64,000 nucleotides of DNA, taken from NCBI GenBank assembly GCA_002449785.1, contig DJXP01000019.1, positions 102,676 through 166,675 of the forward strand, in the 5' to 3' direction. A model generated the notes under the pieces. That model ran no database searches. It was not told the origin of the DNA and saw nothing but the letters and a program-made list of their open reading frames with translations. Source of the stretch: Clostridiales bacterium UBA7001 (lineage in GTDB: Bacteria > Bacillota > Clostridia > TANB77 > CAG-508). This document shows, in pieces, positions 20,258 to 55,614 of this stretch. The position numbers and the translations under genes are program-made. Numbering within the stretch: the stretch's first letter is position 1; every line of letters starts with the position of its first letter.

Positions 20258-20290
20258 AAAAGCTTGCTTATTAAAAAGCAAGCTTTTATT
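20258..20290. terminator. Bidirectional terminator
   Basis: Stem AAAAGCTTGCTT / AAGCAAGCTTTT between convergent genes. Confidence 0.7.
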
Positions 20291-21303: not shown

Positions 21304-21335
21304 TAAATTGCTCCTTTAATTTAAATGAGTATAAT

Positions 21336-33699: not shown

Positions 33700-33712
33700 G
33701 GAGGTTTGGCAT

Positions 33713-34957: not shown

Positions 34958-34970
34958 TTGCACAATATGT

Positions 34971-35002
34971 AAAAAGGGGCTTTTTTTATAGCCCCTTTTT
35001 TG
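34971..35002 (+). terminator. Rho-independent terminator
   Basis: Stem AAAAGGGGC / GCCCCTTTT followed by a T-run. Confidence 0.7.
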
Positions 35003-35049
35003 CATAATTTTTAGAAATTTTAGCAAAGAGTATTCTGTAATAATCTTGA

Positions 35050-35087
35050 ATAAAAAAATCCTGTAATTGCCAAAAATTACAGGATTT
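35050..35087 (-). terminator. Terminator of the minus-strand tRNA pair
   Basis: 12-bp stem AATCCTGTAATT / AATTACAGGATT, followed on the minus strand by a T7 run. Confidence 0.7.
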
Positions 35088-35090
35088 TGT

Positions 35091-35166
35091 TGGTCGAGGT
35101 GACAGGGATCGAACCTGCGACCTCATGGTCCCAAACCACGCGCGCTACCAACTGCGCTACACCTCG
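35091..35166 (-). tRNA. tRNA-Pro(TGG)
   Basis: Folded by hand from the reverse complement. Acceptor stem CGAGGTG/CACCTCG, anticodon loop TTTGGGA, T-arm GCAGGTTCGATCCCTGT, and CCA is encoded. Confidence 0.9.
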
Positions 35167-35215
35167 ATTAAGCATTTTTAATATAGAGGATAGTTAGCTA
35201 ACCTCTATATTAAAA

Positions 35216-35292
<77 letters not shown>

Positions 35293-35384
35293 AGAAGACA
35301 ATAATTATATTAACACAATGAAAAGCTTTTGTCAAGAAAAAAACAATAATTTTCACCGTGTTTAGTAATATTAATTAGTCTTTA

Positions 35385-37635: not shown

Positions 37636-37664
37636 TTGAAAAAACTTTAAAAATAGTATATAAT
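37636..37664 (+). promoter_or_regulatory. Promoter of pilin paralog 1
   Basis: TTGAAA (37636-37641), 17-nt spacer, TATAAT (37659-37664). Confidence 0.65.
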
Positions 37665-37696: not shown

Positions 37697-38110
37697 ATGA
37701 AAAAAAATGTAATTAAAGCAATTTCACTATTATTAGTTGCAGTTTTATGTGTAACAGTATTAACAACAATTGTTAATGGCGAGACAATAGGTTATAAAAA
37801 TATTGATACAACAACAGTTACTGAAAGTGCTCAAGATACATCTGGAGCTGCTGGATTAATAAACCAATGGATGGGTGCTGCTTTAACAATTGTGCAAGTC
37901 GTTGGTGTTGGTGTAGCTGTTATTATGTTAATTATATTAGCTATTAAATATATTTCTGCTGCTCCAAGTGATAAAGCAGAAATCAAAAAACATGCTGTTG
38001 TATATGTAGTTGGTGCAGTAGTATTATTTGCAGCATCAGGAATTTTACAATTAATAAAAACATTTGCTAACCAAGCTAATGATACATTTTCAGGTTCAGG
38101 TAAACCATAG
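37697..38110 (+). CDS. VirB2/TrbC-like T4SS pilin paralog 1 (monocistronic)
   Basis: Signal peptide, a variable segment, then 'VQVVGVGVAVIMLIILAIKYISAAPSDKAEIKKHAVVYVVGAVVLFAASGIL' (TM helix, basic loop, TM helix). It has its own promoter and terminator. Confidence 0.7.
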   Translation: MKKNVIKAISLLLVAVLCVTVLTTIVNGETIGYKNIDTTTVTESAQDTSGAAGLINQWMGAALTIVQVVGVGVAVIMLIILAIKYISAAPSDKAEIKKHAVVYVVGAVVLFAASGILQLIKTFANQANDTFSGSGKP

Positions 38111-38126
38111 AGAAAGAATTATAAAG

Positions 38127-38161
38127 AACAAGCAGATTTTTAATCTGTTTGTTTTTTTTTT
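38127..38161 (+). terminator. Rho-independent terminator after pilin 1
   Basis: Stem AACAAGCAGATT / AATCTGTTTGTT followed by a T10 run. Confidence 0.8.
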
Positions 38162-38208
38162 GCAAAAATATTTACAAATCTTATATTTATATATAATATT
38201 ATAATTAG

Positions 38209-38237
38209 TTGAAAAAAAAGTAAAAAAATGTTATAAT
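38209..38237 (+). promoter_or_regulatory. Promoter of the pilin 2-6 unit
   Basis: TTGAAA (38209-38214), 17-nt spacer, TATAAT (38232-38237). Confidence 0.65.
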
Positions 38238-38284
38238 ATAAGAGAAAGATTTTAACATTAATATGTTTGCAGGAGGTAAATATT

Positions 38285-38662
38285 ATGAAAAAAAGTTTAA
38301 TGAAGCTTGTAATTTCTTTAATTATATTTTGCTTTGTTTTAGGATTTTATTTTTATTTCTCACAAGTAGAAGCCTTTGACTGGGGAGGAGAGATTAATAA
38401 TACTGTAGCATCTGAAGATAGTTCAGGAGTTTCTACATCTCTTACCGGGTTAGCTGGTACAGTGGTTACCGTTGTAAGAGTGATTTGTATGGGAGTTGCA
38501 GTAATTATGTTAATTGTTCTTGGAATAAAATATATGGTTTCAGCTCCTAGTGATAGGGCTAGTATTATGAAACATGCTTGGGTATATTTAGTAGGAGCTT
38601 TGATTATGTTTGCAAGTAGTGCAATAATTGGAATTATTGCTAAATTTGCAAGTCAATTATAA
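38285..38662 (+). CDS. VirB2/TrbC-like pilin paralog 2
   Basis: 'VVRVICMGVAVIMLIVLGIKYMVSAPSDRASIMKHAWVYLVGALIMF'. AGGAGG Shine-Dalgarno sequence before the ATG at 38285. Confidence 0.7.
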   Translation: MKKSLMKLVISLIIFCFVLGFYFYFSQVEAFDWGGEINNTVASEDSSGVSTSLTGLAGTVVTVVRVICMGVAVIMLIVLGIKYMVSAPSDRASIMKHAWVYLVGALIMFASSAIIGIIAKFASQL

Positions 38663-38685
38663 TTAGCAATTTTTAGGAGGAAAAA

Positions 38686-39066
38686 ATGAAAAAAGTTCAT
38701 GTAGTAAAATTTTTTGCGATAATATTAATGTTTTTTTTAATAAGTAGTTCATTTGTTTATGTTTCAAATGCTGGAGAACAAATGATAAAAACACTTCAAA
38801 CCGTAGATGAAGCACAAGATTCAACAAATGCTACAAAAACTGTTAGAAGTGTTCTTGGAACAATATTAGTAGCTGTTCAAATTGTTGCTATGACAGTTGC
38901 TGTTGTTATTTTATTAGTTCTTGCAATGAAATATATGGCTGCAGCTCCAGGAGAAAAAGCAGATATAAAAAAGAGTTTTTTTGTGTATGTTGTAGGAGCA
39001 GTAGTTGTATTTGGGGCAATTGGAATATTAAGAGTAATAGAGATGGCATCACATGCAATCGGATAA
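38686..39066 (+). CDS. VirB2/TrbC-like pilin paralog 3
   Basis: 'AVQIVAMTVAVVILLVLAMKYMAAAPGEKADIKKSFFVYVVGAVVVF'. Confidence 0.7.
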   Translation: MKKVHVVKFFAIILMFFLISSSFVYVSNAGEQMIKTLQTVDEAQDSTNATKTVRSVLGTILVAVQIVAMTVAVVILLVLAMKYMAAAPGEKADIKKSFFVYVVGAVVVFGAIGILRVIEMASHAIG

Positions 39067-39107
39067 TTATAAATAAAGAAATAGAAAAGTGTATGTGGAG
39101 GAGTATA

Positions 39108-39479
39108 ATGAAAAATAATCTTATTAAAATTATTTCAGTTGCAATTATTATATGTATGAGTTTTGGTGTGATGAACATAGTTATAGCAGCTGATAATGGT
39201 AGATTTCAAGTGGAAAGATTTGAAGATAAAGAAAATCCAATTGATAATACAACAAAAAATGCTACTGCTACTATTATTAGTGCTGTTAGAATTGTTGGAG
39301 TAACAGTTGCGATTGTAATGCTTCTTGTAATAGCAATGAAATATATGGCATCAGCTCCTGGAGATAGAGCAGATATAAAAAAACATGCAGTAGCTTATGT
39401 AATAGGTGCTGTTATACTTTTTGGCGTATCTGGAATACTTGGAATTTTAGTAGAAATAGCAGGAGCAATAAAAGCTTAA
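39108..39479 (+). CDS. VirB2/TrbC-like pilin paralog 4
   Basis: 'AVRIVGVTVAIVMLLVIAMKYMASAPGDRADIKKHAVAYVIGAVILF'. Confidence 0.7.
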   Translation: MKNNLIKIISVAIIICMSFGVMNIVIAADNGRFQVERFEDKENPIDNTTKNATATIISAVRIVGVTVAIVMLLVIAMKYMASAPGDRADIKKHAVAYVIGAVILFGVSGILGILVEIAGAIKA

Positions 39480-39514
39480 ATTAGTTAATAATAAAAAGAT
39501 AAATGGTGATTATT

Positions 39515-39886
39515 ATGAAAAAAGTTTTAGCGATAGTAGTAATTGTAATGTTAATAATTTCATTTGGTTATAATATGGTTATGGCTGTTGATGGTGGTTT
39601 TATAACATCAAATTTTTCAGGAGCAGATCCTGATGGTGATGTAAGCAATGCAGCAGGAGAAATATTAGGTGGGATATTAGCAGTTGTAAGAGTTGCTGGT
39701 GTTACTACAGCAGTAGTTATTTTAATGGTAATTGGTATAAAATATCTAATTGCATCAGCAGGAGATAGAGCAGATATAAAAAAATATGCTGTAAAATATA
39801 TAATAGGTGCTTTAATTCTTTTTTCAGCATCAGGACTAATAGGAATTGCTCAAGGAATTATATCTGAAAGTGTTAAAGCCGATTAA
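39515..39886 (+). CDS. VirB2/TrbC-like pilin paralog 5
   Basis: 'VVRVAGVTTAVVILMVIGIKYLIASAGDRADIKKYAVKYIIGALILF'. Confidence 0.7.
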   Translation: MKKVLAIVVIVMLIISFGYNMVMAVDGGFITSNFSGADPDGDVSNAAGEILGGILAVVRVAGVTTAVVILMVIGIKYLIASAGDRADIKKYAVKYIIGALILFSASGLIGIAQGIISESVKAD

Positions 39887-39907
39887 CTATAGAAAAGAGG
39901 ATTAAAT

Positions 39908-40291
39908 ATGAAAAGGGTTTTATATATTTTTTTAATTTTAATAATTATATGTAATTTTATTAATTTTTTTTATAATATTTCTTATGCAAAAGATGGAAAA
40001 ATTGATGCACTTATTGGTCAAGCAAGTGAGGCTCAAAATCCTGCAGATACAGAAGGAGATCCTTTTTTTGAAGGCATTAATAAAATAATAGGAATTATTC
40101 AAATTGTAGGAACAGGTATTTCAATTATTGTTGTTTCAATTCTTGGAATAAAATATATGATGGCAAGTCCAGGTGAAAAAGCAGATGTTAAGAAAAATAT
40201 TTTACCAATAATATATGGATGTGTATTGGTATTTGGTGGAGTAAATGTGGTCGCAATTATTGCAAATTTCTCAAGTAAAGTATTAAAATAA
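39908..40291 (+). CDS. VirB2/TrbC-like pilin paralog 6
   Basis: 'IIQIVGTGISIIVVSILGIKYMMASPGEKADVKKNILPIIYGCVLVF'. Confidence 0.7.
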   Translation: MKRVLYIFLILIIICNFINFFYNISYAKDGKIDALIGQASEAQNPADTEGDPFFEGINKIIGIIQIVGTGISIIVVSILGIKYMMASPGEKADVKKNILPIIYGCVLVFGGVNVVAIIANFSSKVLK

Positions 40292-40387
40292 TGCTTTACA
40301 GAAAATATTAAATAATTATTTAATATTTAATTTTTATTAAATTATATCGTTATTTAAAAAATTAAATATATAAAAAATAGTTTTAAG

Positions 40388-40430
40388 AGATTTTTGCGAT
40401 ACTTATGTAATTTGCAAAAATCTTTTTTTG
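40388..40430 (+). terminator. Rho-independent terminator after pilin 6
   Basis: Stem AGATTTTTGC / GCAAAAATCT followed by a T7 run. Confidence 0.75.
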
Positions 40431-40470
40431 TTACAATTTTATTAAAAATATCAAATATTATACAAAAATA

Positions 40471-40499
40471 TTGAAAAAAATTTTTGTTTTAAGTATAAT
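40471..40499 (+). promoter_or_regulatory. Promoter of the core T4SS-like operon
   Basis: TTGAAA (40471-40476), 17-nt spacer, TATAAT (40494-40499). Confidence 0.65.
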
Positions 40500-40578
40500 T
40501 AATATAATAGTGATATTATGCGAAGAAATTAGATTTATTATAGTTATATAGCAATTCTTGCAAGAAAGGGTGAGAAAA

Positions 40579-40965
40579 ATGAAAAAAATGTTATTTATTA
40601 AAACTTTATTAGCATTATCCTTATTTTTTGTGGTATTTTCAAATTTTAATTATTCTCATGCAAGTCTTTTAAGTGATATGAGAGGGCAAATTAATTCATT
40701 TGAATCACAAGGTCAAGGTGTAAATGTTGATACGGGAAATGTTGTTAAACCATTTGTTGAACTTGCTAGATTACTTATGACAATTGGTGCTGGTGTATTA
40801 GTAGCTGTTACAACATATATGGGTATTAAATATTTAACATCTGGACCAGATGCACAAGCTAAGTTAAAAGTTCAATTAATTGGATTAGTAGTTTCAGGTT
40901 TTGTTATTTTTGGAGCATATTTTATTTGGAAAATAGTATTAACTTTTGCAAATAATTCATTATAA
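40579..40965 (+). CDS. Divergent VirB2/TrbC-like pilin paralog 7 (first gene of the core operon)
   Basis: 'LMTIGAGVLVAVTTYMGIKYLTSGPDAQAKLKVQLIGLVVSGFVIF'. Same architecture as the other six but the lowest similarity to them. Confidence 0.6.
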   Translation: MKKMLFIKTLLALSLFFVVFSNFNYSHASLLSDMRGQINSFESQGQGVNVDTGNVVKPFVELARLLMTIGAGVLVAVTTYMGIKYLTSGPDAQAKLKVQLIGLVVSGFVIFGAYFIWKIVLTFANNSL

Positions 40966-40981: not shown

Positions 40982-41341
40982 ATGGGGACATATTATATAC
41001 CTCGTAATTATAGAGGTGAAACAAGAATATTATACATATTTACAATTAAGTCTTTAATTTCTACTGCGGTAGGAGTAATGGTTGGCGCAATTTTTCTTTT
41101 CATATTTAGAGCAATGAATATGATGCCTGTTGGTCTAGGAATTATGGCATTTTTTGCATTAATAGGTTTTGTAGTAGGAGCTATAAAAATCCCTACAATT
41201 GTCGCAATACCTGTTACAAAGAAAATTGGTGGAGAACCAATTTATGAAATTGTACTTAGGTATTTTAAACATAAGAAAAGAAGAAGATTATATGTTTATA
41301 CAAAAGAAATAAATAAGGAGGAAAGTGCAAATGAACAGTAA
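40982..41341 (+). CDS. PrgI/VirB3-like two-TM T4SS protein
   Basis: 'YYIPRNYRGETRILYIFTIKSLI' followed by two adjacent TM helices. It sits immediately upstream of the VirB4 region. GGGGAGG Shine-Dalgarno sequence before the ATG at 40982. Confidence 0.6.
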   Translation: MGTYYIPRNYRGETRILYIFTIKSLISTAVGVMVGAIFLFIFRAMNMMPVGLGIMAFFALIGFVVGAIKIPTIVAIPVTKKIGGEPIYEIVLRYFKHKKRRRLYVYTKEINKEESANEQ

Positions 41342-42575
41342 TGTAATACCTTTACTTCAACTTGGTATAGTTCTTATTTTTATTATAATGATTTTATTAA
41401 TTCTATTATATGTTTACTTAATGAGACCAAAAAAAGTTGAAAAGCGTAAAGAGGAAGAGGATGAGTTATTAACTCAAGATGATGAAAACAAGAAAAATAG
41501 AATTCAAAATTATGGAAAATTTACAACCAATTTATCAAGAGAATCAATTTATGAATTTATGGAATTTGATGAAATCGTTGATAATATGATAGTAAGAAAA
41601 AACGGCGCACAATATATTATGATTTTACAGTGTAATGGTGTAAATTATGATTTAATGAGTGAAGATGAAAAAATAGCAGTTGAAGAAGGATTTGTACAAT
41701 TCCTAAATACTTTAAGATTTCCAATTCAATTATATGTTCAAAGTAGAACATTAAATTTAAGAGATATAATTGAAGAATATAAAGCAAGAATAGATAATTT
41801 AACAGTTGAAATAGATAAAATAGATGCAAAACTTGCTCAAACTTCTGGTAATAAGGCATTAAGAGAAAAACTAGAATTTGAAAAGAGAAGAAAAGTAAAT
41901 ATATTAGAATATGGTATAAATATTACAGATTATGTTGAAAAAATGAGTTCAAATAAAAATGTATTACAACAAAGAACATATGTTGTAGTTTCATATTATT
42001 CAGCAGAAATTGGTGGAAATTTAGATAGATGGTCTAAAGAAGAAATATATAATATGTGTTTTTCTGAATTATATACAAGATGTCAAAATATAGCGAGTTC
42101 CCTAAGTACATCACAAGTTTCTAGCCGTATTTTAGACTCTGAAGAATTAGCAGAACTATTATATATTGCTTATAATAGAGATGAATCTGAATTATTACAA
42201 CTTTCAAAAGTTTTAGATGCTCAGTATGATTCATTATATAGTACAGGCAAAGATGTATTACAGAAAAAACAAGAAAAAATTGAACAAGAAATTAATATTG
42301 CTGCAATTGATATGGCAACAGATAGTATCTTAAAAGCTGATAGACAAAGACAAGTTGAGGAACTTGAATTTAAGATTAATAAAACAGAAAGAATTAAACA
42401 AAAAGCTAGTGAGTTAATAGATTCATATCATGATCAATTAGACCCTAGAGTATATCAATTAGCTAAAAGAGAAGTCGAAAAAGTTGGCAATGAAGTAAAA
42501 AAACCTGAATTGCAGGAAGCCCAAACTACTGCTCCTAGAAAAAAAGTGGTTAAAAGAAGAAGAATAGAGGACTAA
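41331..42575 (+). CDS. Membrane-anchored coiled-coil protein with a VirB4-N-terminal-like segment and no P-loop
   Basis: N-terminal TM helix, then 'IVRKNGAQYIMILQCNGVNYDLMSEDEKIAVEEGFVQFLNTLRFPIQLYVQSR', then coiled coil and a basic tail. Overlaps the upstream gene by 11 nt. Confidence 0.4.
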   Translation: MNSNVIPLLQLGIVLIFIIMILLILLYVYLMRPKKVEKRKEEEDELLTQDDENKKNRIQNYGKFTTNLSRESIYEFMEFDEIVDNMIVRKNGAQYIMILQCNGVNYDLMSEDEKIAVEEGFVQFLNTLRFPIQLYVQSRTLNLRDIIEEYKARIDNLTVEIDKIDAKLAQTSGNKALREKLEFEKRRKVNILEYGINITDYVEKMSSNKNVLQQRTYVVVSYYSAEIGGNLDRWSKEEIYNMCFSELYTRCQNIASSLSTSQVSSRILDSEELAELLYIAYNRDESELLQLSKVLDAQYDSLYSTGKDVLQKKQEKIEQEINIAAIDMATDSILKADRQRQVEELEFKINKTERIKQKASELIDSYHDQLDPRVYQLAKREVEKVGNEVKKPELQEAQTTAPRKKVVKRRRIED

Positions 42576-42593: not shown

Positions 42594-44591
42594 ATGTTTG
42601 GAAATAATAAAAAGAAAGAAACTACTAATGAAATAGATAGTATAAAAAAAGAAGAAGATAGTATTTTTAAAAGAAATGAGAAAGATATAAAATCTTTAAT
42701 TGCTCCTGGCGGAATAGATGCAAGTTATACTAATCATTTAGAAATTGCTTCATCAAGAACTAGATATGCTAGAAGCATGGTTGTTGCTAATCTTCCAAGA
42801 ATGTGTACTTTTCCAGAATTTTTAAGAGGAATGTATACTTTTGGAGATATAAATGTATCTGTATTTATAAATCCTGTTAGTGAAGCATCTTCACAAACTG
42901 ATTTAAATAGAACAATAAATGAATTAGAGTCTGAAAGAATCGTTGCTTTAGATAGAGGAGATATAAACAGAGAGAGAATAATAGCTCAAAAGAGAATGGA
43001 AGCAGAAGAACTACGTGATGCCATAGCTGCTGGTTTTAATAAGTTATTTGATTCATCTATAATTGCAACAATTTTTGCATATAGTATGGATGAACTTGAT
43101 AGATATACAGAGCTTTTATCAAATGAGATGTCAAAAAACCTTATCGATATTAAACCAGCTTGGGCAATACAAGATGAAGCATTTAGAAGCAATTTACCTT
43201 TTTCTGATAATATTTTAACAAAATCACATACATTTGATAGAAGAGCAATGTCTACTGTATTTCCATTTTTCAATTCTGAAGTAGGACATGAAAATGGTAT
43301 TCCTTTAGGATTTAATAAACAAACTGGATTACCTATATTATATGATAATTTTAGTTCATCACTTAATAACTATAATATGGTTATATTTGGAAAATCTGGT
43401 GCTGGAAAATCTGTTACTATAAAAACTATTACAGCTCGTTCAGCAGTACTTATGGGAATAGAAAGTTTAGCTCTAGATGCTGAAGGTGAGTATGGAATAG
43501 TTGCTGAAGCACTAGGTGGTGTTAATGTTACATTAAGCCCAAATTCTAAAACAGTTATAAATTTGTTTGATATAGAACCTGAAATTATTAAAGATGAAAT
43601 AACAGGAAAAGAAAGAACTGTATTAAGTGTTGAAAATAAAGTTGAAGACGTTACAAATGGATTACTAACAATGGCAAGAGGTAGTACAAGAAGCCAAGAA
43701 GTAAATGAGCTTACTAAACAGATAATTTCTGAATCTGTTGCTGAAGAATATGCTGCTCTTGGTATAACAAATAATGTTGAAAGTTTATATGAAAGAGATG
43801 ATAAAGGAAAAATAGATATTTCCCAAAATTATTTAGGAAGAACTAAAAAGCAAATGCCTACAATTGGTTCATGGTATAAAAGAATTTGTAGAAAAGCAAC
43901 AGAAAATGAAAACCCAGATTATCGTTTCCACTACAGTTATTTAGTAAAAGTTATGAAACAGTATGTTAGAGAATATCAAGGACAAATGGCATATTTTGAT
44001 GGACAATCTACTTTTGAATTATTAGATGGTGTTCCATTTATTAATATAGATATTTCTCAATTAGAGGAAAGATTTGCAAGACCTTTAGCACAGCAAATAA
44101 TGCTATCATGGGTTTGGGAAAAATATGTTAAGAAAAATAGTGAAGATAAAACAAAAGCTGCTAAAAAGAGAGTTTTAGTTGATGAGGCTTGGATGCTTTT
44201 ACCTTATCCTGAAGCTGTAGATTTCTTAAATACAATGGCTAGACGTGCCAGAAAAAGAAATGTTTCTCTTGCTGTTATTTCACAAAAATTCCAAGACTTT
44301 TATGAAAAACAAGAGGTACAAGCAGTTTTAACATCTTCTGATACAAAATTATTCTTAGCACAAGATAAATCAGAAATTCAGTATTTAAAAGAAGTATTTA
44401 AACTAAGTGAAGGTGAAGCTGGATTTTTAATTACATGTAATAGAGGTGAAGGATTGCTTAAAGTTGGTGGTGATTCAGCTATACTTGCAATTCAACCAAC
44501 TAAGAAGGAATTTGAATTTGTTGAAACAAACTTAAATAAGCAATCTCAAATGGAAAGAGCAAAGAAAGAAGCATTAAATAGTTCTAATTAA
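42594..44591 (+). CDS. VirB4-family T4SS ATPase
   Basis: Walker A 'FGKSGAGKSV', Walker B 'VLVDEAWMLL' and 'AVISQKFQDF'. The N-terminal domain follows the Firmicutes VirB4 pattern ('LIAPGGID...YARSMVVANLP'). Confidence 0.85.
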   Translation: MFGNNKKKETTNEIDSIKKEEDSIFKRNEKDIKSLIAPGGIDASYTNHLEIASSRTRYARSMVVANLPRMCTFPEFLRGMYTFGDINVSVFINPVSEASSQTDLNRTINELESERIVALDRGDINRERIIAQKRMEAEELRDAIAAGFNKLFDSSIIATIFAYSMDELDRYTELLSNEMSKNLIDIKPAWAIQDEAFRSNLPFSDNILTKSHTFDRRAMSTVFPFFNSEVGHENGIPLGFNKQTGLPILYDNFSSSLNNYNMVIFGKSGAGKSVTIKTITARSAVLMGIESLALDAEGEYGIVAEALGGVNVTLSPNSKTVINLFDIEPEIIKDEITGKERTVLSVENKVEDVTNGLLTMARGSTRSQEVNELTKQIISESVAEEYAALGITNNVESLYERDDKGKIDISQNYLGRTKKQMPTIGSWYKRICRKATENENPDYRFHYSYLVKVMKQYVREYQGQMAYFDGQSTFELLDGVPFINIDISQLEERFARPLAQQIMLSWVWEKYVKKNSEDKTKAAKKRVLVDEAWMLLPYPEAVDFLNTMARRARKRNVSLAVISQKFQDFYEKQEVQAVLTSSDTKLFLAQDKSEIQYLKEVFKLSEGEAGFLITCNRGEGLLKVGGDSAILAIQPTKKEFEFVETNLNKQSQMERAKKEALNSSN

Positions 44592-44603: not shown

Positions 44604-45821
44604 ATGGAAAATATGAAAAAATTAGTAACATCAATGTTATTAATAGTATTATTGTTTAATTTCATATTTTTAAATAGTTCTTATGGAGCAGCTGAAGATA
44701 ATGCAGATGACTCAGTTTTAGCTCAAGAAGCTAAGCCAAGTGACGGAATGATGAAAAGTATTTTAGAGGAAGGTACAGCTGCTCATAAGCAAGATGATAG
44801 TATTAAAACGACACTATCTTTTGCTAATTTTGGTTCATCAATTGTCGGTTTTGTTTTAGGAATATTATCAAGGCTTTTTAATGCAGTTATTGCATTAGAA
44901 TTAGATATTATTTTTGGACAATTAACATATACAGTTGAAAATGGTGAATTACAATATTTTGTTACAATAGATAGATTAGTTTTTAATAGAATTCCACTAC
45001 TTAATGCTAATTACTTTAATACAAATGATACATATAAAATTGGAGATTTAGAACTACCAATTAATGAAAATAACAAATTAATTAAAGAAAGTATAGCAAG
45101 TGTTTATACAATATGTAGAATATTAGCTCTTATTATTGGTTTAGTGGTTTTAGTATATATTGGTATAAGAATGGCTATTTCTACTGTTGCATCAGAACAA
45201 GCAAAATATAAGAAGATGCTTATTGGTTGGTTTGAAAGTATTGTTATTATTTTTGCAATGCCTTATATTATGGCTGCTTTGTTCACCATAGAAGAAGTTC
45301 TAATTGGTGTTTTCTACGAGCTTAGAAATTCATTAATGGGTGGTAACACTAATGAAGTATTTGAAAATGTTGTAAGAAATATTGTGTTAGAACTAGTGTT
45401 TTCTGCATCTGGAATTGAGCTTACAATGTGGTCTATAATGTATTGGGTTTTATTATATATGGAAATCAAGTTTTTATGGACATATACAAAGAGATTTTTT
45501 ATGATAGGTTTTCTTGTAGCAATTGCTCCATTAGTTACAATAACATATTCAATAGATAAAGCAGGAGATGGAAAAGCACAAGCTTTTTCTAATTGGCTTA
45601 AAGAGTTTATGTTAAATGTATTAATACAGCCATTACATGCTATTATTTTTTTAGTAATTGTAATGACTGCAAATAATATAGCTTCAAAAGCTCCTATTAT
45701 AGCTATTTTCTTGTTGTTATCAATGGGAACAGTTGAAAAAATGGTAAGAGTTGTATTTAATGTTAGTGATTCTGTTACATTTAATGGTATAAGAGATAGA
45801 CTATTCAAGAAAGGAAAGTAA
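44604..45821 (+). CDS. VirB6/TcpH-like polytopic membrane protein, paralog 1 (short form)
   Basis: Signal peptide, 'LLNANYF', 'LVYIGIRMAISTVASEQAKYKKML' and 'ITYSIDKAGDGKAQAFSNWLKEFMLNVLIQPLHAIIF'. Confidence 0.65.
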   Translation: MENMKKLVTSMLLIVLLFNFIFLNSSYGAAEDNADDSVLAQEAKPSDGMMKSILEEGTAAHKQDDSIKTTLSFANFGSSIVGFVLGILSRLFNAVIALELDIIFGQLTYTVENGELQYFVTIDRLVFNRIPLLNANYFNTNDTYKIGDLELPINENNKLIKESIASVYTICRILALIIGLVVLVYIGIRMAISTVASEQAKYKKMLIGWFESIVIIFAMPYIMAALFTIEEVLIGVFYELRNSLMGGNTNEVFENVVRNIVLELVFSASGIELTMWSIMYWVLLYMEIKFLWTYTKRFFMIGFLVAIAPLVTITYSIDKAGDGKAQAFSNWLKEFMLNVLIQPLHAIIFLVIVMTANNIASKAPIIAIFLLLSMGTVEKMVRVVFNVSDSVTFNGIRDRLFKKGK

Positions 45822-45825: not shown

Positions 45826-46995
45826 TTGAAAAATAATAATATTTTAAGATTAGTTATAGTAGGATTTATTCTTTTATTTTTTGCAATACTTTGTTTCTTA
45901 TTGTATATTGTTATTTCTTATAATTTATCTGATACAAGTTCAAATATTTCAGTTACTACTGCAAATAATGAATTTAAGGAAACGGTTGAAGATGTTGTAA
46001 TAGAATATGATTGCAAATTTTATAAAGTAGATAATAATAAAATATATGTGAGATTTTCTAAGAATTTATTTGATGACAATGGTAAAAGCAATGAAAATTA
46101 CTTTAAATCTATTGTTAATGATATATCTAGATTTTATGAAAAATCAGATTTTTATTTAATTGATAATAATAAGGAGCTAGAGATTTTTGCTAAATATGAT
46201 ACTACAAATGAAAAACATGTTATAGTAATTAATTCAATTGAGGATTACTATAATAATGTAGACGGAAATGACTATGTTGAAATTAATAATATTAAATTAC
46301 CAAAAGAATCAGATACAATAAAATCTGTAAATTCCTTGTTAACAAATTTAAAAGATAGTGGTATGAAATTTTCTAGTATAGAAGAAGAACTTGGTGAAGG
46401 TACTCATTTAGATAACGGATATATTAGCTATTTGAATAATACTGTTAAGCTAAGAATTGTTGGAAATAAAGTTGTTAGAAATATTGTTTTTTCAAGAAAA
46501 TATGATGAAAAGATTTTCAATAACGTAGATAATGACGCTTCACTTGAAGAATTTTATATGGAAAATCCTAATAATTGCTATGGTGGAATAGAAGAAGGTT
46601 ACTTGGGATATAGAACTAATCAATTATATTATTTTATATATGATGATGAAATTTCTGTTTATGGATATTCATATACTAAAAATGTTAAATTCGAAGAATT
46701 ATTAGAAAAATATCTTGATAATAAAAATTTTGAAAGATTTATAATACTACTTACTGGTCAAATGCCTACATATGATTACTGTGAATATGATGTGGAGAAT
46801 AAAACTGCTAATATAATGCTTTCATCATATGGAATTGAAATAGATATAAAAGATAATGATCCAAAAGGAATTATACTTTATAACAATTATTGTTTTACAG
46901 ATGATTCTAAGAAATTGGTAAAAAATGGTTTAATTACATTTAAAAATGATGAAAATTCAATTGAAAAAATGGAGATTGAAAGAAGAAAAAAGTAA
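45826..46995 (+). CDS. Single-pass membrane protein, unknown function (paralog A)
   Basis: TTG start, an N-terminal TM helix and an extracytoplasmic domain of about 350 aa. The N-terminal 130 aa align by eye with the next ORF. Confidence 0.55.
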   Translation: MKNNNILRLVIVGFILLFFAILCFLLYIVISYNLSDTSSNISVTTANNEFKETVEDVVIEYDCKFYKVDNNKIYVRFSKNLFDDNGKSNENYFKSIVNDISRFYEKSDFYLIDNNKELEIFAKYDTTNEKHVIVINSIEDYYNNVDGNDYVEINNIKLPKESDTIKSVNSLLTNLKDSGMKFSSIEEELGEGTHLDNGYISYLNNTVKLRIVGNKVVRNIVFSRKYDEKIFNNVDNDASLEEFYMENPNNCYGGIEEGYLGYRTNQLYYFIYDDEISVYGYSYTKNVKFEELLEKYLDNKNFERFIILLTGQMPTYDYCEYDVENKTANIMLSSYGIEIDIKDNDPKGIILYNNYCFTDDSKKLVKNGLITFKNDENSIEKMEIERRKK

Positions 46996-47005: not shown

Positions 47006-48547
47006 ATGAAAAATCAAAAATATAAAAATAAGGGGTTGAATAGAGTTATTTTCTGTGCTATTTTAGTTTGCACCTTTATTTTTATATTTTTGATTGCTGT
47101 ATTAGTAATTAATAAACATAATAGTGAAGAATACAACTTGTCATATAACAGTTTAACAACTGTAAAGCAAGTTATTGAGTATCATAAATCAAAATATATT
47201 TCGGAAAAAGAAAGTGAAGATCCAGCTTTTTATTTAGACATAAATTTAGAGTTAAAAGTTTTACCATATGATGAAGATGATAAGAGTAATGAAGATTATT
47301 ATAATGCATTATTAAATGATGTTGCAAAAGTAATAAAGTATAATAGTTATAGAATGTTTGATGAGAAAAATGATATTACAATAGAAGTATTATGCAAAAA
47401 TGATGAAATAGAATCAATTATTATTAATGGTATTGAGGATTATTTTATTTATATGGATTTACAAATTAGTATGAAATCATATGAAGAGATACCTATAACC
47501 AATTTAAACATTAGTTCTGAAAAACTAAAAGAATGTAAAAATAATAATTGGAATTCTTTAATTGATTTTGGTACAAGAGAGAGTACATTTAATCAATATA
47601 ATATATATTTTGATGAAGGTATATTTGTAAGAAATATCCAATCAAAAATATATAATATTATTTTTACACGTAATTATAGGGGGAGTGTTATAGATAATAT
47701 ATATCCAGGAATGAACTTAGATGATGTAAAAGATATCCTTGGAAAACCAACTTTTGAAGACGAAGAACTAAATGTAATTGGCTATAAAGGAAATGATATT
47801 TATGCATTTTTTACAAATGATGTGATTTCTATATATGCAATTAAAGATGATTATTATGGAACTGAGCAATTTTTAGATTTATATGAATACTATTTAGATG
47901 GTGATGATAGTGATTTATTGGAATTTATGAACCAATTGACATATACATGGCCAGATTATAGTGAATATAATTATTCTTCAAATTATGTTTTCATAGCATA
48001 TCCTTTAAAAGGTATTGAAATTAAAGTAAATTATGATGACACGAACGGAATTTTGGTGTATAATAATATTAAGGGCGATATTAATAGTATTGAGCCATAT
48101 TTAAAAAATTCAGATTTTATTTCAAGACTACAAATAGATTGTGTATTTGAAGCTGAAAAAAGACGAATAACTGAAGAAAAGGATTTAATAGAAAAAAGTA
48201 AAGATTATATAAATAATATTCAAGATAATGAAAAGAATACAAAAAATGAAAGTTTAGTTTATAATATTTTACCTGAAATGGATTCTAATAATGGTATATA
48301 TTGTATAAAGTTTATTTCCAAAACAGGAGAAAAGCCAAACAGAGAATTATTTGATGGAATAAATGATTATATTTGGATTTCAAATGAATATTTTCTATAT
48401 TCAAAAATTGGAAAGGGTATATTTTTATACAATCTAGAAAATGGTAATGTGCAGAGAATAATTGAAGGAAAAGATGATTATAAGTTTGAAAGTTACAATA
48501 ATGGAATTCTAACATATGATAATGGAAAAACAATTGAACTTAGATAG
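47006..48547 (+). CDS. Single-pass membrane protein, unknown function (paralog B)
   Basis: N-terminal TM helix. 'DDKSNEDYYNALLNDVAKVIKY' matches 'NGKSNENYFKSIVNDISRFYEK' in paralog A. Confidence 0.55.
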   Translation: MKNQKYKNKGLNRVIFCAILVCTFIFIFLIAVLVINKHNSEEYNLSYNSLTTVKQVIEYHKSKYISEKESEDPAFYLDINLELKVLPYDEDDKSNEDYYNALLNDVAKVIKYNSYRMFDEKNDITIEVLCKNDEIESIIINGIEDYFIYMDLQISMKSYEEIPITNLNISSEKLKECKNNNWNSLIDFGTRESTFNQYNIYFDEGIFVRNIQSKIYNIIFTRNYRGSVIDNIYPGMNLDDVKDILGKPTFEDEELNVIGYKGNDIYAFFTNDVISIYAIKDDYYGTEQFLDLYEYYLDGDDSDLLEFMNQLTYTWPDYSEYNYSSNYVFIAYPLKGIEIKVNYDDTNGILVYNNIKGDINSIEPYLKNSDFISRLQIDCVFEAEKRRITEEKDLIEKSKDYINNIQDNEKNTKNESLVYNILPEMDSNNGIYCIKFISKTGEKPNRELFDGINDYIWISNEYFLYSKIGKGIFLYNLENGNVQRIIEGKDDYKFESYNNGILTYDNGKTIELR

Positions 48548-48556: not shown

Positions 48557-51500
48557 ATGGTAGTACTTAGAAATTTACTTAAGAAAATAGTAATATTAAT
48601 AATTATACTAGCTATATTTATTTCTTTTTGTACTACTCCTGCGTCTTATGCTAAATTAGATATTAAGTCAGATGAGTTTTATTACGCTGGAACTCAAAAA
48701 GGTCAATATGTAGCAAAAGAAGGTGTGTTTGATTGGTTAATTAATGCACTTGCTGAAGTTGCAGATTGGATAATTGGTGCAATTTCAATGGCTATTAGAG
48801 CACCTTTTATTGGATGGACAGCTCTTATTGAAAGACTACTTACAGCTGCATTAGATGCTACTTGTGGATTAGATATGAATAATGAAATAAGTAATACAGA
48901 TTTAATGTCTATTGTTACATCAGAAAATAATGTTACTGTTCAAGCAATTGTATACAACCAAGTTCCAGCATTAGATGCAAACTTTTTTAAAACAGAATAT
49001 AATAAAAAATATTCTCCAACAGGTGGAATATTAAGGTGTAAAAAATGTCAGAAAGTATGTAGCGAGTGTTGCCCTGATGGCACATGTACAGGCGGATGTA
49101 CATGTAATGGTTCATGTGATTCTTGTGCTAAATATAAACAATTGTTAGATGCTGAACCAGTAATTATTGAATTAAAAAAATATGTTTCTTTTTGGTATTA
49201 TACAATAAGAATAATAGCATTAGCTGGAATGCTTGCAGTTCTTGTATTTATAGGAATTAAGATAGCATTAAATACAGTTGCTTCTGAAAGAGCAATGTAT
49301 AAAAGAATGTTAGTAGATTGGGTTGTTGGTATTTTAATAATATTTTTAATTCATTATATAATGTATTTTACTATATATATTAATGAAACATTTGTTAATA
49401 TTGTAAAAGAATATGCAACAGATATAAATACACATACTATTCAAAAAATGGAATTAGCTGAAAAAACATCAGATGGATCATCAGCTGAATATACTAGTGA
49501 AGAATTAGAAATAGATATATATGAAGAAATAAGAACTAGAGCTTATGATGCTAAATTAGTTAATGGTTTAATTGGAATGGTTTTATATATGTCTATGGTA
49601 TATATGGCTATACGATATACTTTAGTTTATTTAAAAAGAATGTTTGTAATAGCTGTTTTAATGATTATGGGGCCAGGAGTTGGTTTTGCATATGCACTTC
49701 AAAAAGCATTATCTGGAAGAACAATGGCACTAAAAAAGTGGTTATCAGAATATATAATTAATGTAATTATTCAAACTGTTCATGCAATAATTTATTCTGT
49801 ATTTATTTCAACTGTGTTAGTTTTATCTTTAAAAAATGTTGCTGGAATTGTAGTTGCATTAATTGTTATGAATTTTTCTTTAAAAGCAGAAGATATATTT
49901 AGAAAAGTATTTAATTTAAATTCTAGTGGTTTACTAAAAGAAACTGATAAAGCTGGAAATCTTGAAGAAAGAGCGAGAAATATGTTCGGAACTTATAAAG
50001 GTGCTACAGCAATTGCTAAGAACGTTGGAAATTCATTTTATGGAAAAACAGTTGCAGCAGCTGGAAAAATAGGAGTAGGTGGAGCTATTGTGGCAGCATC
50101 TGCAATAAGAAGTGGATTAAGTAATGGCATACAATCTGCAGTTGCTTCTTCAAATATAAATGCTGCTTCAGAATCAAATGATGATTCTGGTAATGATGAA
50201 GATTTATCTAGTAATAATGCTTCAGGAAATTCAAATTCAGTTCCGAATTATGGTTCAGATGGAATTGCAACTAAAATACCAATTATTGGTAATGCAGTTT
50301 ATCATCATAGAAGAGATAAAGAACTTTCTAATATTTCTTTAGGAGACTTAACAAGTGCTTTTGAAAAAGCTAAAGCAGAATACGAGAAAAATCCAGATGA
50401 TCAGAAGGCTCTTGAAAATTATATATATGCATATAATAATTTAGAAAGAAAGCAAGAATTAAATACAGTAACACATGGTGATGTTTTAAAAGGACATATG
50501 GAAAGACTGTTAGACATAGATAATTATTTTGAATTTAAATTAGATTCAAAAGGAAATAAAGTATATTCCCCTAAAAAGGGTCTATTACTCGGTACAAGTC
50601 ATTATGATTATCAAACAAATAAAATGGTTTCAGATAAAAATTCTGCAATATACCAATTAAGTCCAAAGAATTTACTTGGTTTTACAGATGAAGATAGTAA
50701 AGTATTTAATGAAAATATTGTTAAACCACTTAAAAATGGATTCTTAGGGACAGCTGCAATGTTTGTTGGTTTATCTACATTTGCATTTCACCCTAGACTT
50801 GGAATGGGTCTTCTAGCATATGGTGTACCAAATAAATATGGAGCTTTTAAAAAACTAGGATATATTCCAAGTTTAAATACGTCAGTAAATTATAAAAATA
50901 GAAAATACAATTTTAAGGCATTTTCAACACCAGCATTAAATAATATGAAAGATATTGCTATTGAAAGGATGAGAGCAGAACAAGGACAACTTGCTGTAAA
51001 TAGAATTAGAGAAAAGCATCCAAATTTATTTAAAGGTTTAAGAGCTGGAACAGTAGTAGCTTCTACACTTGTTGGTGGACTTGCAGGAGGAGCTGTAACA
51101 TATTCTGCACTTAAAGCATATGATAGATTTGCTTATGATAAAAGTAGAAGATTAGCAGATGCTAGAGATTCTAAAGGTAGACCTATTATACATAGTATGT
51201 ATGATAAAAGTGAGTATAAAGTTAGAAGAGTAAGTGAAGCAGAAGATGCAATAAATAAACAAAGTTATAAACAATTAAAAGCACAAGAAAAAGAATTTGA
51301 AGAAGATGCTTTAAAAACAATTGCTATGGAAGCTAGTGTAAATACTGAAAAAGAAATTGAAGATTTTGCTGATAATCAAAGAGAAGAAATTCTTGCACAA
51401 ATGGGATATAAATATAATAAAAAGACTGGAGAACTTATTAAAATAAATGAGGAAGGTTCTTTTGGAAGAAATAATGATGATTCTTCTCATGAATCTTCAA

Positions 51501-52768
51501 ATGCTGAGAATTCAAATAATACTAGAAAAAGTTCTACAGATGAAAGTGCAATTGCTAAAGAAGAAATTAAAGAAAAGAAAATTAATGATGCAGAGATAAA
51601 GAAATTAAATGATAGTATTGATGCTATTTTATTAAAAATAGCAAATTCAAAACCTTTAGAGATTAATAGTGAGTCAAAATTAAATCATGTTATTTCAGAA
51701 TTGAATTCTGAACTTATTAAGGCTAATATTATTTCAAAAGATCAAAAAGTTGAAGAATTGTTTAAAGGTGGAAGAAGTGCTTTAGTATCTACAATTAAGA
51801 GAAAAACCAAAAGAGTTAATAAAAAAATAGCTAAAGAAAATGAAATATTTGAAAAAATGAATAATATAGAAAGATCTGCTATAAAAGAGTCTGTTGAAGA
51901 AGCAATTCAAAAAGAACTATCTAAGGGTTCCGAATCTTCAAAAAGTAAGAAAAGTGTGTATGATACTATAAGTAAAGAATCTATTCTAGATAGAATGTTA
52001 AGTAAGGTAGGAGCAGTATTAAATCCAAATGCACAAAATGGTCCAATAGGGTCTAATTCTAATAATCATAGTTCAGATAGTCAGAATAGAGGCAAAGAAA
52101 ATACAGATACAGCTCATACATCTCCAAATGTAGCATCTAGAATTCCAGCAAGTAAAAAAAGCGATTATATGGAAGCTATAAAACAATATTTATTATATAG
52201 AAAAGATGAAGAATCTTCAGATACAAGTGAAAGTACAGCAAAGAAAGTTTCTGGTAGAGAAAAAGAAGAAGTAATGAGTAAAGCAAATGCTGAGGTAGAA
52301 AAAAGGAAAAATAAATTAAAACAAGCTCTTGAGGTTTCTTTAGATACTCCAGAAGAAGGACTTGCTATACTAAGTGCAGATGATGAATTAAATGGTTTAA
52401 ATTCTTCAAAAATATTGGAACAATTATTTGTTATGAAAGAAATTAATAAAAGAGGAAAAGAAATTAAAGTTAAAGGTTCTTCTGCATATAAAAAACAATC
52501 TAAAGCACTTAGTAGTGCTGAGACAGAATATTATAAAACTCAAAGAGATATATTAATGGAAGAGATAAACAATGGCTATCCAAAAGATTTTGATGTATCA
52601 AGTGTAGATTATGATGCATTAAGTATAGAAGAAAAAGTAAAAGTTGACAATTATAGTAGATTAAAAAGGAAATTAGCTGAAAAAGAAAAAACAATGGCAA
52701 AACAAAAGAAAATAAAACAAGAAGCAGGGCCTATTATAAATATTAATCAACTGTTAAATAATTTATAG
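48557..52768 (+). CDS. VirB6/TcpH-like paralog 2 with a Cys-rich loop and a roughly 950-aa C-terminal extension
   Basis: 'ALDANFF', 'LVFIGIKIALNTVASERAMYKRML' and 'WLSEYIINVIIQTVHAIIY'. The extension is low-complexity (S/N/K/E) and contains additional hydrophobic segments. Confidence 0.6.
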   Translation: MVVLRNLLKKIVILIIILAIFISFCTTPASYAKLDIKSDEFYYAGTQKGQYVAKEGVFDWLINALAEVADWIIGAISMAIRAPFIGWTALIERLLTAALDATCGLDMNNEISNTDLMSIVTSENNVTVQAIVYNQVPALDANFFKTEYNKKYSPTGGILRCKKCQKVCSECCPDGTCTGGCTCNGSCDSCAKYKQLLDAEPVIIELKKYVSFWYYTIRIIALAGMLAVLVFIGIKIALNTVASERAMYKRMLVDWVVGILIIFLIHYIMYFTIYINETFVNIVKEYATDINTHTIQKMELAEKTSDGSSAEYTSEELEIDIYEEIRTRAYDAKLVNGLIGMVLYMSMVYMAIRYTLVYLKRMFVIAVLMIMGPGVGFAYALQKALSGRTMALKKWLSEYIINVIIQTVHAIIYSVFISTVLVLSLKNVAGIVVALIVMNFSLKAEDIFRKVFNLNSSGLLKETDKAGNLEERARNMFGTYKGATAIAKNVGNSFYGKTVAAAGKIGVGGAIVAASAIRSGLSNGIQSAVASSNINAASESNDDSGNDEDLSSNNASGNSNSVPNYGSDGIATKIPIIGNAVYHHRRDKELSNISLGDLTSAFEKAKAEYEKNPDDQKALENYIYAYNNLERKQELNTVTHGDVLKGHMERLLDIDNYFEFKLDSKGNKVYSPKKGLLLGTSHYDYQTNKMVSDKNSAIYQLSPKNLLGFTDEDSKVFNENIVKPLKNGFLGTAAMFVGLSTFAFHPRLGMGLLAYGVPNKYGAFKKLGYIPSLNTSVNYKNRKYNFKAFSTPALNNMKDIAIERMRAEQGQLAVNRIREKHPNLFKGLRAGTVVASTLVGGLAGGAVTYSALKAYDRFAYDKSRRLADARDSKGRPIIHSMYDKSEYKVRRVSEAEDAINKQSYKQLKAQEKEFEEDALKTIAMEASVNTEKEIEDFADNQREEILAQMGYKYNKKTGELIKINEEGSFGRNNDDSSHESSNAENSNNTRKSSTDESAIAKEEIKEKKINDAEIKKLNDSIDAILLKIANSKPLEINSESKLNHVISELNSELIKANIISKDQKVEELFKGGRSALVSTIKRKTKRVNKKIAKENEIFEKMNNIERSAIKESVEEAIQKELSKGSESSKSKKSVYDTISKESILDRMLSKVGAVLNPNAQNGPIGSNSNNHSSDSQNRGKENTDTAHTSPNVASRIPASKKSDYMEAIKQYLLYRKDEESSDTSESTAKKVSGREKEEVMSKANAEVEKRKNKLKQALEVSLDTPEEGLAILSADDELNGLNSSKILEQLFVMKEINKRGKEIKVKGSSAYKKQSKALSSAETEYYKTQRDILMEEINNGYPKDFDVSSVDYDALSIEEKVKVDNYSRLKRKLAEKEKTMAKQKKIKQEAGPIININQLLNNL

Positions 52769-55580: not shown

Positions 55581-55614
55581 TTTATCAATTAAAAATATGA
55601 GAAAGGGGCTTAAA

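Follow-up and report, generated by a model that had tools for sequence, protein, structure and literature searches.

The 64,000-nucleotide stretch of contig DJXP01000019.1 from Clostridiales bacterium UBA7001 that we analysed (hereafter the window) encodes seven VirB2-type pilins in tandem, P1 to P7, directly upstream of the machinery genes of a type IV secretion system (T4SS). The host belongs to the uncultured low-G+C gut Clostridia lineage TANB77/CAG-508, close to Candidatus Scatovivens, and G+C content is ~25% across the whole window. We think it probable, if short of secure, that the locus encodes a monoderm T4SS that has been domesticated, in which P1 is the probable major pilin, P2–P6 are accessory and P7 is the ancestral copy linked to the machinery; its most likely role, though this is the least certain part, is contact or adhesion. 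Arrays of several T4SS pilins have precedents as a general phenomenon. What is new here is a multi-pilin, relaxase-less T4SS in true Clostridia, with a conserved layout of three transcription units and a parallel amplification of VirB6.

Seven VirB2-type pilins with a common hairpin

A sequence-only reading of the window had proposed seven tandem pilin paralogs at 37697–40965, and seven plus-strand open reading frames (ORFs) of 123–137 amino acids (aa) do lie there. Independent gene calls on identical metagenome contigs gave the same starts and lengths for P1 to P7. In a Pfam scan, PF18895 (T4SS_pilin) matched all seven proteins and PF04956 (TrbC/VirB2) matched six of them as well, with four proteins above a curated cut-off (P1, P4 and P7 for PF18895; P6 for PF04956). 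Among NCBIfam models, P1 weakly matched Mbov_0395, the 'pilin-like conjugal transfer protein' of a Mycoplasma integrative and conjugative element (ICE). Searching 5.8 billion proteins with a profile yielded at least 2250 relatives. PF18895 is present in nearly all of the top 120, and those few that come with a source name are called hypothetical.

The hydropathy scan found three hydrophobic segments in every protein: a putative signal peptide and two transmembrane (TM) helices, TM1 and TM2. The signal-peptide region, also apparent in the alignment, consists of an MKK n-region and ~20 hydrophobic residues, and it is followed by small residues at −3/−1, placed from alignment and hydropathy only (VNG, VEA, SNA, IAA, VMA, SYA, SHA). 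Between signal peptide and TM1 lies a stretch of 23–30 residues with a net charge of −1 to −5 in all seven proteins, and the loop joining TM1 to TM2 is short and basic, KY..AP.D(K/R)A.IKK. The AlphaFold2 model of P1, built on a 62-sequence alignment, has a predicted local distance difference test (pLDDT) score of 78 overall, with a signal-peptide helix at residues 3–29, a low-confidence linker at 30–50, and a hairpin formed by helices 51–87 and 90–131 (pLDDT 87–94). The two-helix hairpin anticipated by the sequence-only reading is thus present, as TM1 and TM2 in all seven proteins and as a modelled structure in P1.

Only the C-terminal two thirds can be aligned between the paralogs, with K84, Y85, A94 and F111 as the only invariant residues. 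The core motif proposed for the whole set describes P1 to P6 well and P7 only loosely (GIKYLTSGPDAQAKLKV). The N-terminal part had been called unalignable, and there the identity between paralogs indeed equals that of shuffled sequences (0.19 vs 0.18, compared with 0.35 vs 0.22 in the core), but the region concerned is 23–30 residues long and not 25–45.

These proteins are T4SS (VirB2-type) pilins and not type IV pilins. The latter, in the Tad/Flp and Com classes, carry a class III signal peptide for a prepilin peptidase and one N-terminal helix, and are encoded close to a CpaF/PilB ATPase. We rejected them, since in all seven proteins a type-I-like signal peptide precedes two TM helices at the C-terminal end. 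Pfam scans found no T2SSE or T2SSF genes in the window. Holins and bacteriocin immunity proteins, named in the sequence-only reading as families that could overturn it, were rejected too: neither appears among the Pfam matches at E ≤ 1, and the gene context is that of a T4SS.

The machinery operon and the three transcription units

The genes that follow the pilins (Table 1) place the system, as judged from gene content, among the chromosomal, monoderm T4SSs resembling mating-pair formation type FATA (MPF-FATA). By sequence, its ATPase is a VirB4 of the monoderm class, accompanied by the PrgI/VirB3 and TrsD partners by which MPF-FATA is recognised. The best NCBIfam matches of this VirB4 are the CD1110 family (E 3e-60) and Mbov_0397 (E 5e-58), both under the equivalog cut-offs, and its match among PDB sequences is 4ag5, a Thermoanaerobacter protein (E 4e-24). 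The four VirB6-like paralogs resemble the VirB6-like proteins Mbov_0396 and MMCAP2_0566 and share a ~400-aa module, 29–33% identical, and each contains a pilin-like hairpin (LV.GI..A..T.AS..A.Y..M..W); three of them (b, c and d) extend into charged C-terminal tails of 450–1000 aa. Paralog b, of 1403 aa, matched no Pfam family and no PDB sequence. A cysteine-rich insert (CKKCQKVCSECCPDGTCTGGCTCNGSCDSC) occupies its first external loop (residues ~160–190, window 49030–49130) and is not found in the other three paralogs. The two bitopic proteins are 26% identical (E 6e-19), have no Pfam family and could be VirB8-like parts. Gaps in the operon tail are at most 15 nt. The operon is followed by a gap of 493 nt and then by a G5-SH3-glucosaminidase wall hydrolase (60931–62253), which could play the role of VirB1.

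Three promoters of exactly the same build, TTGAAA-17 nt-TATAAT, had been proposed for the locus, and our sequence check agrees for all three. Neither strand of the 64 kb has any further exact match, against 0.29 expected in all, and three matches were reached in 1 of 100 shuffles of the window. The division into a monocistronic P1 and a second unit of P2 to P6 also stands: both terminators fold well, and the short spacers within P2–P6 (21–41 nt) do not fold and lack internal terminators. A consensus terminator scan found nothing in the array region; it missed both terminators because their stems are A+T-rich and the scan has a G+C rule. P7 does head the machinery operon, as 13 genes follow from it with gaps of at most 19 nt.

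The same layout is kept in ten other seven-copy species. Promoters, defined there as at least 11 of the 12 positions of TTGAAA-17-TATAAT, precede P1, P2 and P7, and terminators made of a hairpin and a T run follow P1 and P6 at conserved positions and with unrelated sequences. In all ten, the P1 promoter lies 31–33 nt upstream of the start, a fixed leader. The extended −10 element (TGnTATAAT) is conserved across species in the P2 class of promoters, and in the P7 class the promoter is then followed by TAATATAATA. Of 77 loci, 67 have the pattern TTG[ACT][ACT]A-17-TATAAT ahead of the last pilin. Where an array has three copies, P1 and P2 share one unit that ends in a terminator, and a promoter for the last pilin and the machinery comes next. 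The layout is conserved across species, and the organisation of transcription is therefore under selection. From its own promoter and terminator, P1 is probably the major subunit.

Table 1. Genes and transcription signals of the pilin array and the machinery operon, in window coordinates.
Feature	Position	Strand	Description
P1 promoter	37636..37664	+	TTGAAA-17-TATAAT, 32 nt 5' of ATG
P1	37697..38110	+	VirB2-type pilin, 137 aa, monocistronic; PF18895 34.4 bits (cut-off 26.6)
Terminator after P1	38123..38161	+	16-bp stem, 3-nt loop, T run; -15.6 kcal/mol, z-score -4.75
P2-P6 operon promoter	38209..38237	+	TTGAAA-17-TATAAT with extended -10 (TGnTATAAT)
P2	38285..38662	+	Pilin paralog, 125 aa; PF18895 E 5e-5 (under cut-off); alignable to other paralogs
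P3	38686..39066	+	Pilin paralog, 126 aa; PF18895 E 1.7e-5, PF04956 E 4e-5
P4	39108..39479	+	Pilin paralog, 123 aa, strain-variable; PF18895 34.5 bits
P5	39515..39886	+	Pilin paralog, 123 aa, strain-variable; PF18895 E 3e-5
P6	39908..40291	+	Pilin paralog, 127 aa, strain-variable; PF04956 32.3 bits (cut-off 27.9)
Terminator after P6	40385..40430	+	Hairpin and T run; -16.4 kcal/mol, z-score -4.05
P7 and machinery operon promoter	40471..40499	+	TTGAAA-17-TATAAT
P7	40579..40965	+	Most divergent pilin, 128 aa, opens machinery operon; PF18895 30.3 bits
PrgI/VirB3-like	40982..41341	+	Membrane protein, 119 aa; PF12666 E 1.4e-4, 22.8 bits (cut-off 27)
TrsD/TraC-like	41325..42575	+	416 aa; PF26593; resembles N-terminal part of VirB4
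VirB4-type ATPase	42594..44591	+	665 aa; PF19044, AAA_10, DUF87; intact Walker A/B
VirB6-like a	44604..45821	+	Polytopic, 405 aa; embedded pilin-like hairpin; weak Mbov_0396/MMCAP2_0566 and PF18895 matches
Bitopic protein 1	45826..46995	+	389 aa; paralog of the 513-aa neighbour
Bitopic protein 2	47006..48547	+	513 aa; paralog of the 389-aa neighbour
Extended VirB6-like b	48557..52768	+	1403 aa; Cys-rich insert; charged tail of ~950 aa
Extended VirB6-like c	52788..55580	+	930 aa
Extended VirB6-like d	55597..58215	+	872 aa; weak PF18895 match
Operon tail	58230..60437	+	172-aa membrane protein; 323-aa protein without family; 233-aa ABC-type ATPase (ABC_tran E 3e-34)

Distribution, divergence and origin of the array

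We searched for the locus among GTDB representatives, with one genome per species, and found relatives of the VirB4 in 310 stretches. The best 80, at 78–93% identity, come from uncultured Clostridia, including Candidatus Scatovivens faecipullorum and Clostridium sp. CAG:354; Scatovivens belongs to the family CAG-508 of the order TANB77 (PMC13106387). The exact VirB4 of the window is also present on many rumen and gut metagenome contigs. Pilin genes lie upstream of PrgI-TrsD-VirB4 in all 80 loci, the PrgI-like and TrsD-like genes are each found in 80 of 80, and the core genes occur in 69–80 loci, the 389-aa bitopic protein in 69. The sequence-only reading had suggested comparing copy number across strains or metagenome-assembled genomes, and across the species loci copies climb with VirB4 similarity (Spearman correlation with VirB4 identity to the window 0.85). 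The median number of pilins is 3 (range 1–4) at 70–80% VirB4 identity, 4 (3–6) at 80–85%, 7 (4–8) at 85–90%, and 7 (6–7) at 90–100%.

In close relatives the order P1 to P7 is positionally orthologous, and the duplications therefore predate many speciations. Three-copy arrays consist of a P1-like gene, one middle copy and a P7-like gene. Conservation falls from VirB4 (78–93% identity) through TrsD and PrgI (48–83%) to the VirB6-like proteins and pilins (26–65%), the pattern expected if exposed parts evolve fastest. Four six-copy loci (L005, L007, L009 and L012) lack a P1 ortholog and open with a gene and promoter of the P2 type. In three eight-copy loci the P1-like gene is doubled in tandem; each of the two has a promoter and terminator to itself in L026 and L035, and no strong promoter was found ahead of the first in L027. 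In two more distant species, the pilin profile matched array proteins of 317–426 aa (L051, 4937–6217 and 7182–8381; L052, 5251–6204 and 7155–8354), which may be pilin domains fused to larger proteins.

Variation is concentrated at the N-terminus and not spread uniformly, as the sequence-only reading had held, and this is true between paralogs, between species and between strains. Orthologs from eleven species are 0.59–0.84 identical in the core and 0.20–0.53 identical in the variable stretch, with P1 (core identity 0.84) and P7 the best conserved. To compare strains we had four contigs, representing three haplotypes of the window's species, and scored nonsynonymous (pN) and synonymous (pS) differences. 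P1 is identical in all strains seen, and P1–P3 and the flanking genes are near-identical (pS 0–0.04, flanks ~0.02). The values for P4–P7 are pS 0.04–0.28 and pN 0.02–0.14; against strain L003, P4 has pS 0.23 and pN 0.11 and P5 is 72% identical in amino acids, while P6 is 75–83% identical between strains, with the changes in its N-terminal stretch. When P4–P7 are pooled, the variable stretch has pN 0.14–0.26 and pS 0.21–0.38, and the core pN 0.03–0.06 and pS 0.07–0.19. The idea of a diversified, exposed N-terminus is therefore upheld as to where variation lies, but not as simple positive selection, because pN/pS in the pooled variable stretch is 0.64–0.67, below 1. The tenfold synonymous excess in P4–P7 points to old alleles that were kept or imported by recombination, and the allele pattern does not point to recent positive selection.

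Beyond its own clade the VirB4 has only remote relatives: a search of 1.84 billion cluster representatives gave identities of at most ~40%, short same-clade fragments aside, and all relatives with organism names are Bacillota. They include plasmids of Clostridium beijerinckii and C. botulinum (40–41% identity), Heliorestis (38%), and Peptostreptococcaceae and Caldanaerobacter (~32%). The outgroup loci, at 35–41% VirB4 identity, have one small gene (109–140 aa) followed by PrgI-like, TrsD-like, VirB4 and large VirB6-like genes and, where the contig reaches that far, a gene for a cell-wall hydrolase or peptidase. The small gene is pilin-like by profile search in four of the loci. The outgroup loci reside on plasmids or mobile elements with a type IV coupling protein (T4CP), integrases or replication genes. 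The RefSeq annotation of the C. botulinum plasmid p12/29 (L092, record 9247–15668) gives 'hypothetical protein' for every one of its pilin-like, PrgI-like, TrsD-like and VirB6-like genes and 'DUF87 domain-containing protein' for the VirB4; PLSDB lists the plasmid as non-mobilizable.

The single outgroup pilin occupies the position of P7, and P7 is therefore the ancestral machinery-linked copy and P1–P6 are additions of this lineage; the presence of single pilin-like genes on Clostridium plasmids means that the ancestral monoderm module already had one pilin. We found no match in support of a special affinity to Patescibacteria, although the few named relatives, all Bacillota, are a weak basis for that rejection. 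Judging by the named neighbours at 32–41% identity, all of them Clostridia or Bacilli, a place for this VirB4 inside the Patescibacteria clade is unlikely. With named relatives in Bacillota and outgroups of one pilin, the amplification was probably independent of that in Patescibacteria and apparently started from a one-pilin plasmid or ICE module.

Tad-type genes lie a few kb downstream of VirB4 in three outgroup loci (L091, Heliorestis, 16535–21724; and two metagenome contigs, L094, 20604–22040, and L095, 18897–22019). All three have T2SSE/CpaF, two have T2SSF (L091 and L095), and L091 also has a CpaB-like gene and a prepilin peptidase. The TANB77 Tad pilus, which lies at another locus, and this T4SS might both trace back to a single type of mobile element.

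Pfam scans of 58 of the ~65 non-overlapping window ORFs of at least 90 aa found no relaxase, coupling protein (VirD4/TcpA) or integrase, and the precomputed Pfam lists for the 10-kb flanks in the four strain contigs contain no relaxase or T4CP. The zone free of all three spans ~20 genes on either side of the array. The neighbours in the window are ordinary chromosomal genes: ComEA, PBP5, LytR, CvpA, an aquaporin, a GH25 lysozyme with ChW repeats, and radical SAM enzymes. We considered and rejected as parts of the system a divergent 541-aa membrane protein, which has no match among PDB sequences, and an ArsC/Spx-like gene, as just 8 and 11 of the 80 loci, respectively, have them beside the array. 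Upstream of the 541-aa gene, three of the four strain contigs (L001, L003 and L004) carry RepA_N and TnpV genes; the window strain has at that place (33632–37010) an AAA_14/DUF4143 ATPase gene, tRNA-Pro and tRNA-Arg. The difference looks like a small mobile element gained or lost beside the array. Farther away, on the minus strand (8415–12517), a cluster of four genes encodes, among others, a DUF5305 protein and one of 387 aa that weakly matches signal peptidase S26; it is reminiscent of SipW/TasA-type fibre loci and unrelated to the T4SS.

Possible functions and related systems

A domesticated T4SS of this kind would have descended from a conjugative module of the form [one pilin]-PrgI-TrsD-VirB4-VirB6-hydrolase. 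It would have lost the coupling protein, relaxase and integrase near the locus and amplified the pilin gene (three to eight copies in the lineage), VirB6 (four, three of them extended) and the bitopic protein (two). By analogy with VirB2 and TraA (PMC12857230), each prepilin would be inserted by Sec and cut by signal peptidase I after an AxA-like site. The mature pilin would then sit in the membrane with both termini outside and the basic KY..AP.D+A.IKK loop in the cytoplasm. If the analogy extends to assembly, VirB4 and the VirB6-like platform would extract the pilins and polymerise them through the conserved hairpin, leaving the variable acidic N-terminal 23–30 residues on the outside of a fibre or channel. 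The common hairpin would let all seven pilins use one machine, and their surfaces, being divergent, would confer distinct binding or immune properties. The bulk subunit would be P1, the P2–P6 operon would supply accessory or alternative subunits that set surface properties, and P7 would be made in step with the machinery. We can only speculate that the four VirB6-like paralogs serve different pilins. Since the locus follows a pattern of vertical inheritance and has neither a coupling protein nor a relaxase in its vicinity, the most likely task of the apparatus is contact with, or adhesion to, other cells or host surfaces, possibly transfer, and not the self-transfer of an element; this is the least certain part of our reading.

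Several observations weigh against it. P2, P3 and P5 score below the curated Pfam cut-offs (23.7–25.2 bits, E ≤ 5e-5), although their sequences mark them as clear paralogs. A Foldseek search of PDB with the P1 model gave a best E of 2.6, to generic helical hairpins and with no significant match to solved pilins such as TraA, VirB2 or CedA1, and a sequence profile search of PDB with the pilin returned designed TM proteins only; a bare helical hairpin is too simple for such searches to discriminate. At the level of sequence and models, nothing directly supports filament formation. The pN/pS ratio below 1 gives no formal signal of diversifying selection, and P1, being absent from four close relatives, is not indispensable everywhere. 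Finally, the scans covered the window and the flanks in four strain contigs, and the rest of the genome could encode a T4CP or relaxase.

The proteins might form no extracellular pilus at all and instead be parts of a membrane-embedded or wall-spanning channel, with N-termini that are mere hydrophilic spacers. No pili are known from classical Gram-positive T4SSs, some systems require VirB2 although they show no pili (PMC12857230), and the same hairpin is an integral membrane element of the VirB6-like proteins. We nevertheless regard such a channel as unlikely, since a surface-exposed polymer agrees better with the positional conservation of seven paralogs, with P1 having a strong promoter and a terminator to itself, and with strain alleles whose differences are concentrated in the exposed stretch. 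The locus could also be the mating-pair apparatus of an ICE, with pilins serving DNA transfer between cells, given that its nearest relatives are plasmid or ICE modules with T4CP and integrases and that RepA_N and TnpV adjoin the neighbouring 541-aa gene in three of four strains. This is very unlikely: the conjugation genes are missing for ~20 genes either side, the locus occurs in about 310 species, pilin copy number tracks VirB4 relatedness, conservation is higher for VirB4 than for the ArsC/Spx-like gene beside the array (91% vs 75% in L013), and the window strain lacks the RepA_N/TnpV block with its array unchanged.

We give still less credence to a DNA-uptake machine like Helicobacter ComB or archaeal Ced/Ted, in which the pilins would capture DNA. 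ComB also lacks a nearby T4CP (PMC12857230), the VirB4 weakly matches CedB and CedD, and reduced genomes may need to scavenge nucleotides; yet those matches are far under the cut-offs, the net charge of −1 to −5 on the exposed pilin parts is unfavourable for DNA binding, and a conventional ComEA gene lies elsewhere in the window. Antigenic or phase variation, with one pilin expressed at a time through promoter switching or gene conversion of cassettes, seems to us the most improbable explanation. Divergent copies with variable exposed parts and homopolymer runs in the promoter spacers would suit it. However, P2–P6 share one promoter across uninterrupted short gaps, and the 17-nt promoter spacer is fixed in all strains, so that there is no sign of phase variation and we rejected spacer-length switching. 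The age of the paralogs, their positional orthology and a core identity of only 35% argue against recent gene conversion and a switching cassette system; of inverted repeats, the analysis covered the terminators.

The closest parallel to the domesticated T4SS that we favour is found in the parasitic Patescibacteria, where 441 VirB2 arrays of 2–11 pilins, with 25% mean identity, accompany a relaxase-less T4SS; the six-pilin array of Candidatus Southlakia epibionticum is essential (PMC12102498, PMC12857230). Both systems are chromosomal, relaxase-less and MPF-FATA-derived, both have TrsD, VirB3, VirB4 and VirB6 in a monoderm, uncultured host with a reduced genome, and both have tandem divergent PF18895/PF04956 pilins (~25% mean identity there, 22–40% to P1 here). 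The locus described here differs in its host, a member of class Clostridia in Bacillota, and in its four VirB6-like paralogs and conserved three-promoter layout. VirB2 pilins have been described as absent from Gram-positive T4SSs except those of Patescibacteria (PMC12857230, a review of December 2025; PMC12102498), which were called unique among monoderms in their potential for conjugative-type pili (PMC12857230). The Clostridia locus contradicts this absence outside Patescibacteria.

Among diderms, the Trw system of Bartonella lacks a T4CP and uses variant TrwL and TrwJ pilus parts for host-specific adhesion to erythrocytes (PMC2610397). Like our locus, it is derived from conjugation, has lost the coupling protein, and combines tandem variant surface-exposed pilus parts with a duplicated VirB6 (PMC2610397, PMC12857230). 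The tandem copies there are of trwL/virB2 and trwJ-H, and their proposed role is host-specific adhesion. Unlike the system studied here, Trw is a diderm MPF-T with VirB5 and VirB7–10, and its duplications are recent and lineage-specific, whereas ours are old and positionally orthologous across many species. The rvh T4SS of Rickettsiales has several virB2 paralogs in Anaplasmataceae and four to five extended VirB6 paralogs. In contrast to the Clostridia locus, rvh includes a T4CP and is dispersed over gene islands, and its hosts are diderm Alphaproteobacteria. A multiplication of VirB2 and of extended, very large VirB6 proteins in bacteria that depend on a host and have small genomes appears to be common to both (mentioned in PMC4676284 and PMC12102498), and VirB2 arrays are also known in Anaplasma (cited in PMC12102498).

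Closer in sequence are the Clostridium plasmid and ICE modules (C. botulinum p12/29, the C. beijerinckii plasmid and Heliorestis), with the same gene order and VirB4 at 38–41% identity, and by NCBIfam matches the Mycoplasma ICE proteins Mbov_0395, Mbov_0396 and Mbov_0397 are counterparts of the pilin, the VirB6-like protein and VirB4. The Clostridium modules differ in having a single pilin and in being carried by mobile elements, of which some encode an integrase or T4CP (L090, p12/29), and annotation lists their genes as hypothetical. Within TANB77 itself, a conserved 'pilin' cluster has been published that is a Tad-type pilus with seven 'pilin-like' proteins (Kim et al. 2024, PMC11680825). 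It is likewise conserved in this order, with seven small surface-fibre proteins that have individual promoters, but we rejected an identity of the two: the published cluster is at another locus, with CpaB, TadZ, CpaE, CpaF, TadB/C and one-TM pilins of 143–621 aa. That paper mentions no VirB4, VirB2 or T4SS (PMC11680825), and full-text searches found no literature linking TANB77 to a T4SS.

The locus gives a second, independent reason to ask if bacteria with one membrane build T4SS pili and what purpose arrays of several pilins have, and it shows that single pilin-like genes are common yet unannotated in the conjugation modules of Clostridium. TANB77 has been noted in medicine as a marker of the response to checkpoint immunotherapy, and to the Tad pilus already described for this order the locus adds a different, probable surface apparatus that is shared across the lineage. 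We consider it distinctly unlikely that TANB77 bacteria depend on this T4SS and its multi-pilin fibre for an obligate, contact-dependent partnership with bacteria or host cells, a trait that would have arisen independently of the essential T4SS of epibiotic Patescibacteria and converged on it. If it did, this would help to explain the resistance of TANB77 to cultivation, and the pilins would join the Tad pilins as candidate surface molecules behind the reported host effects of the lineage.

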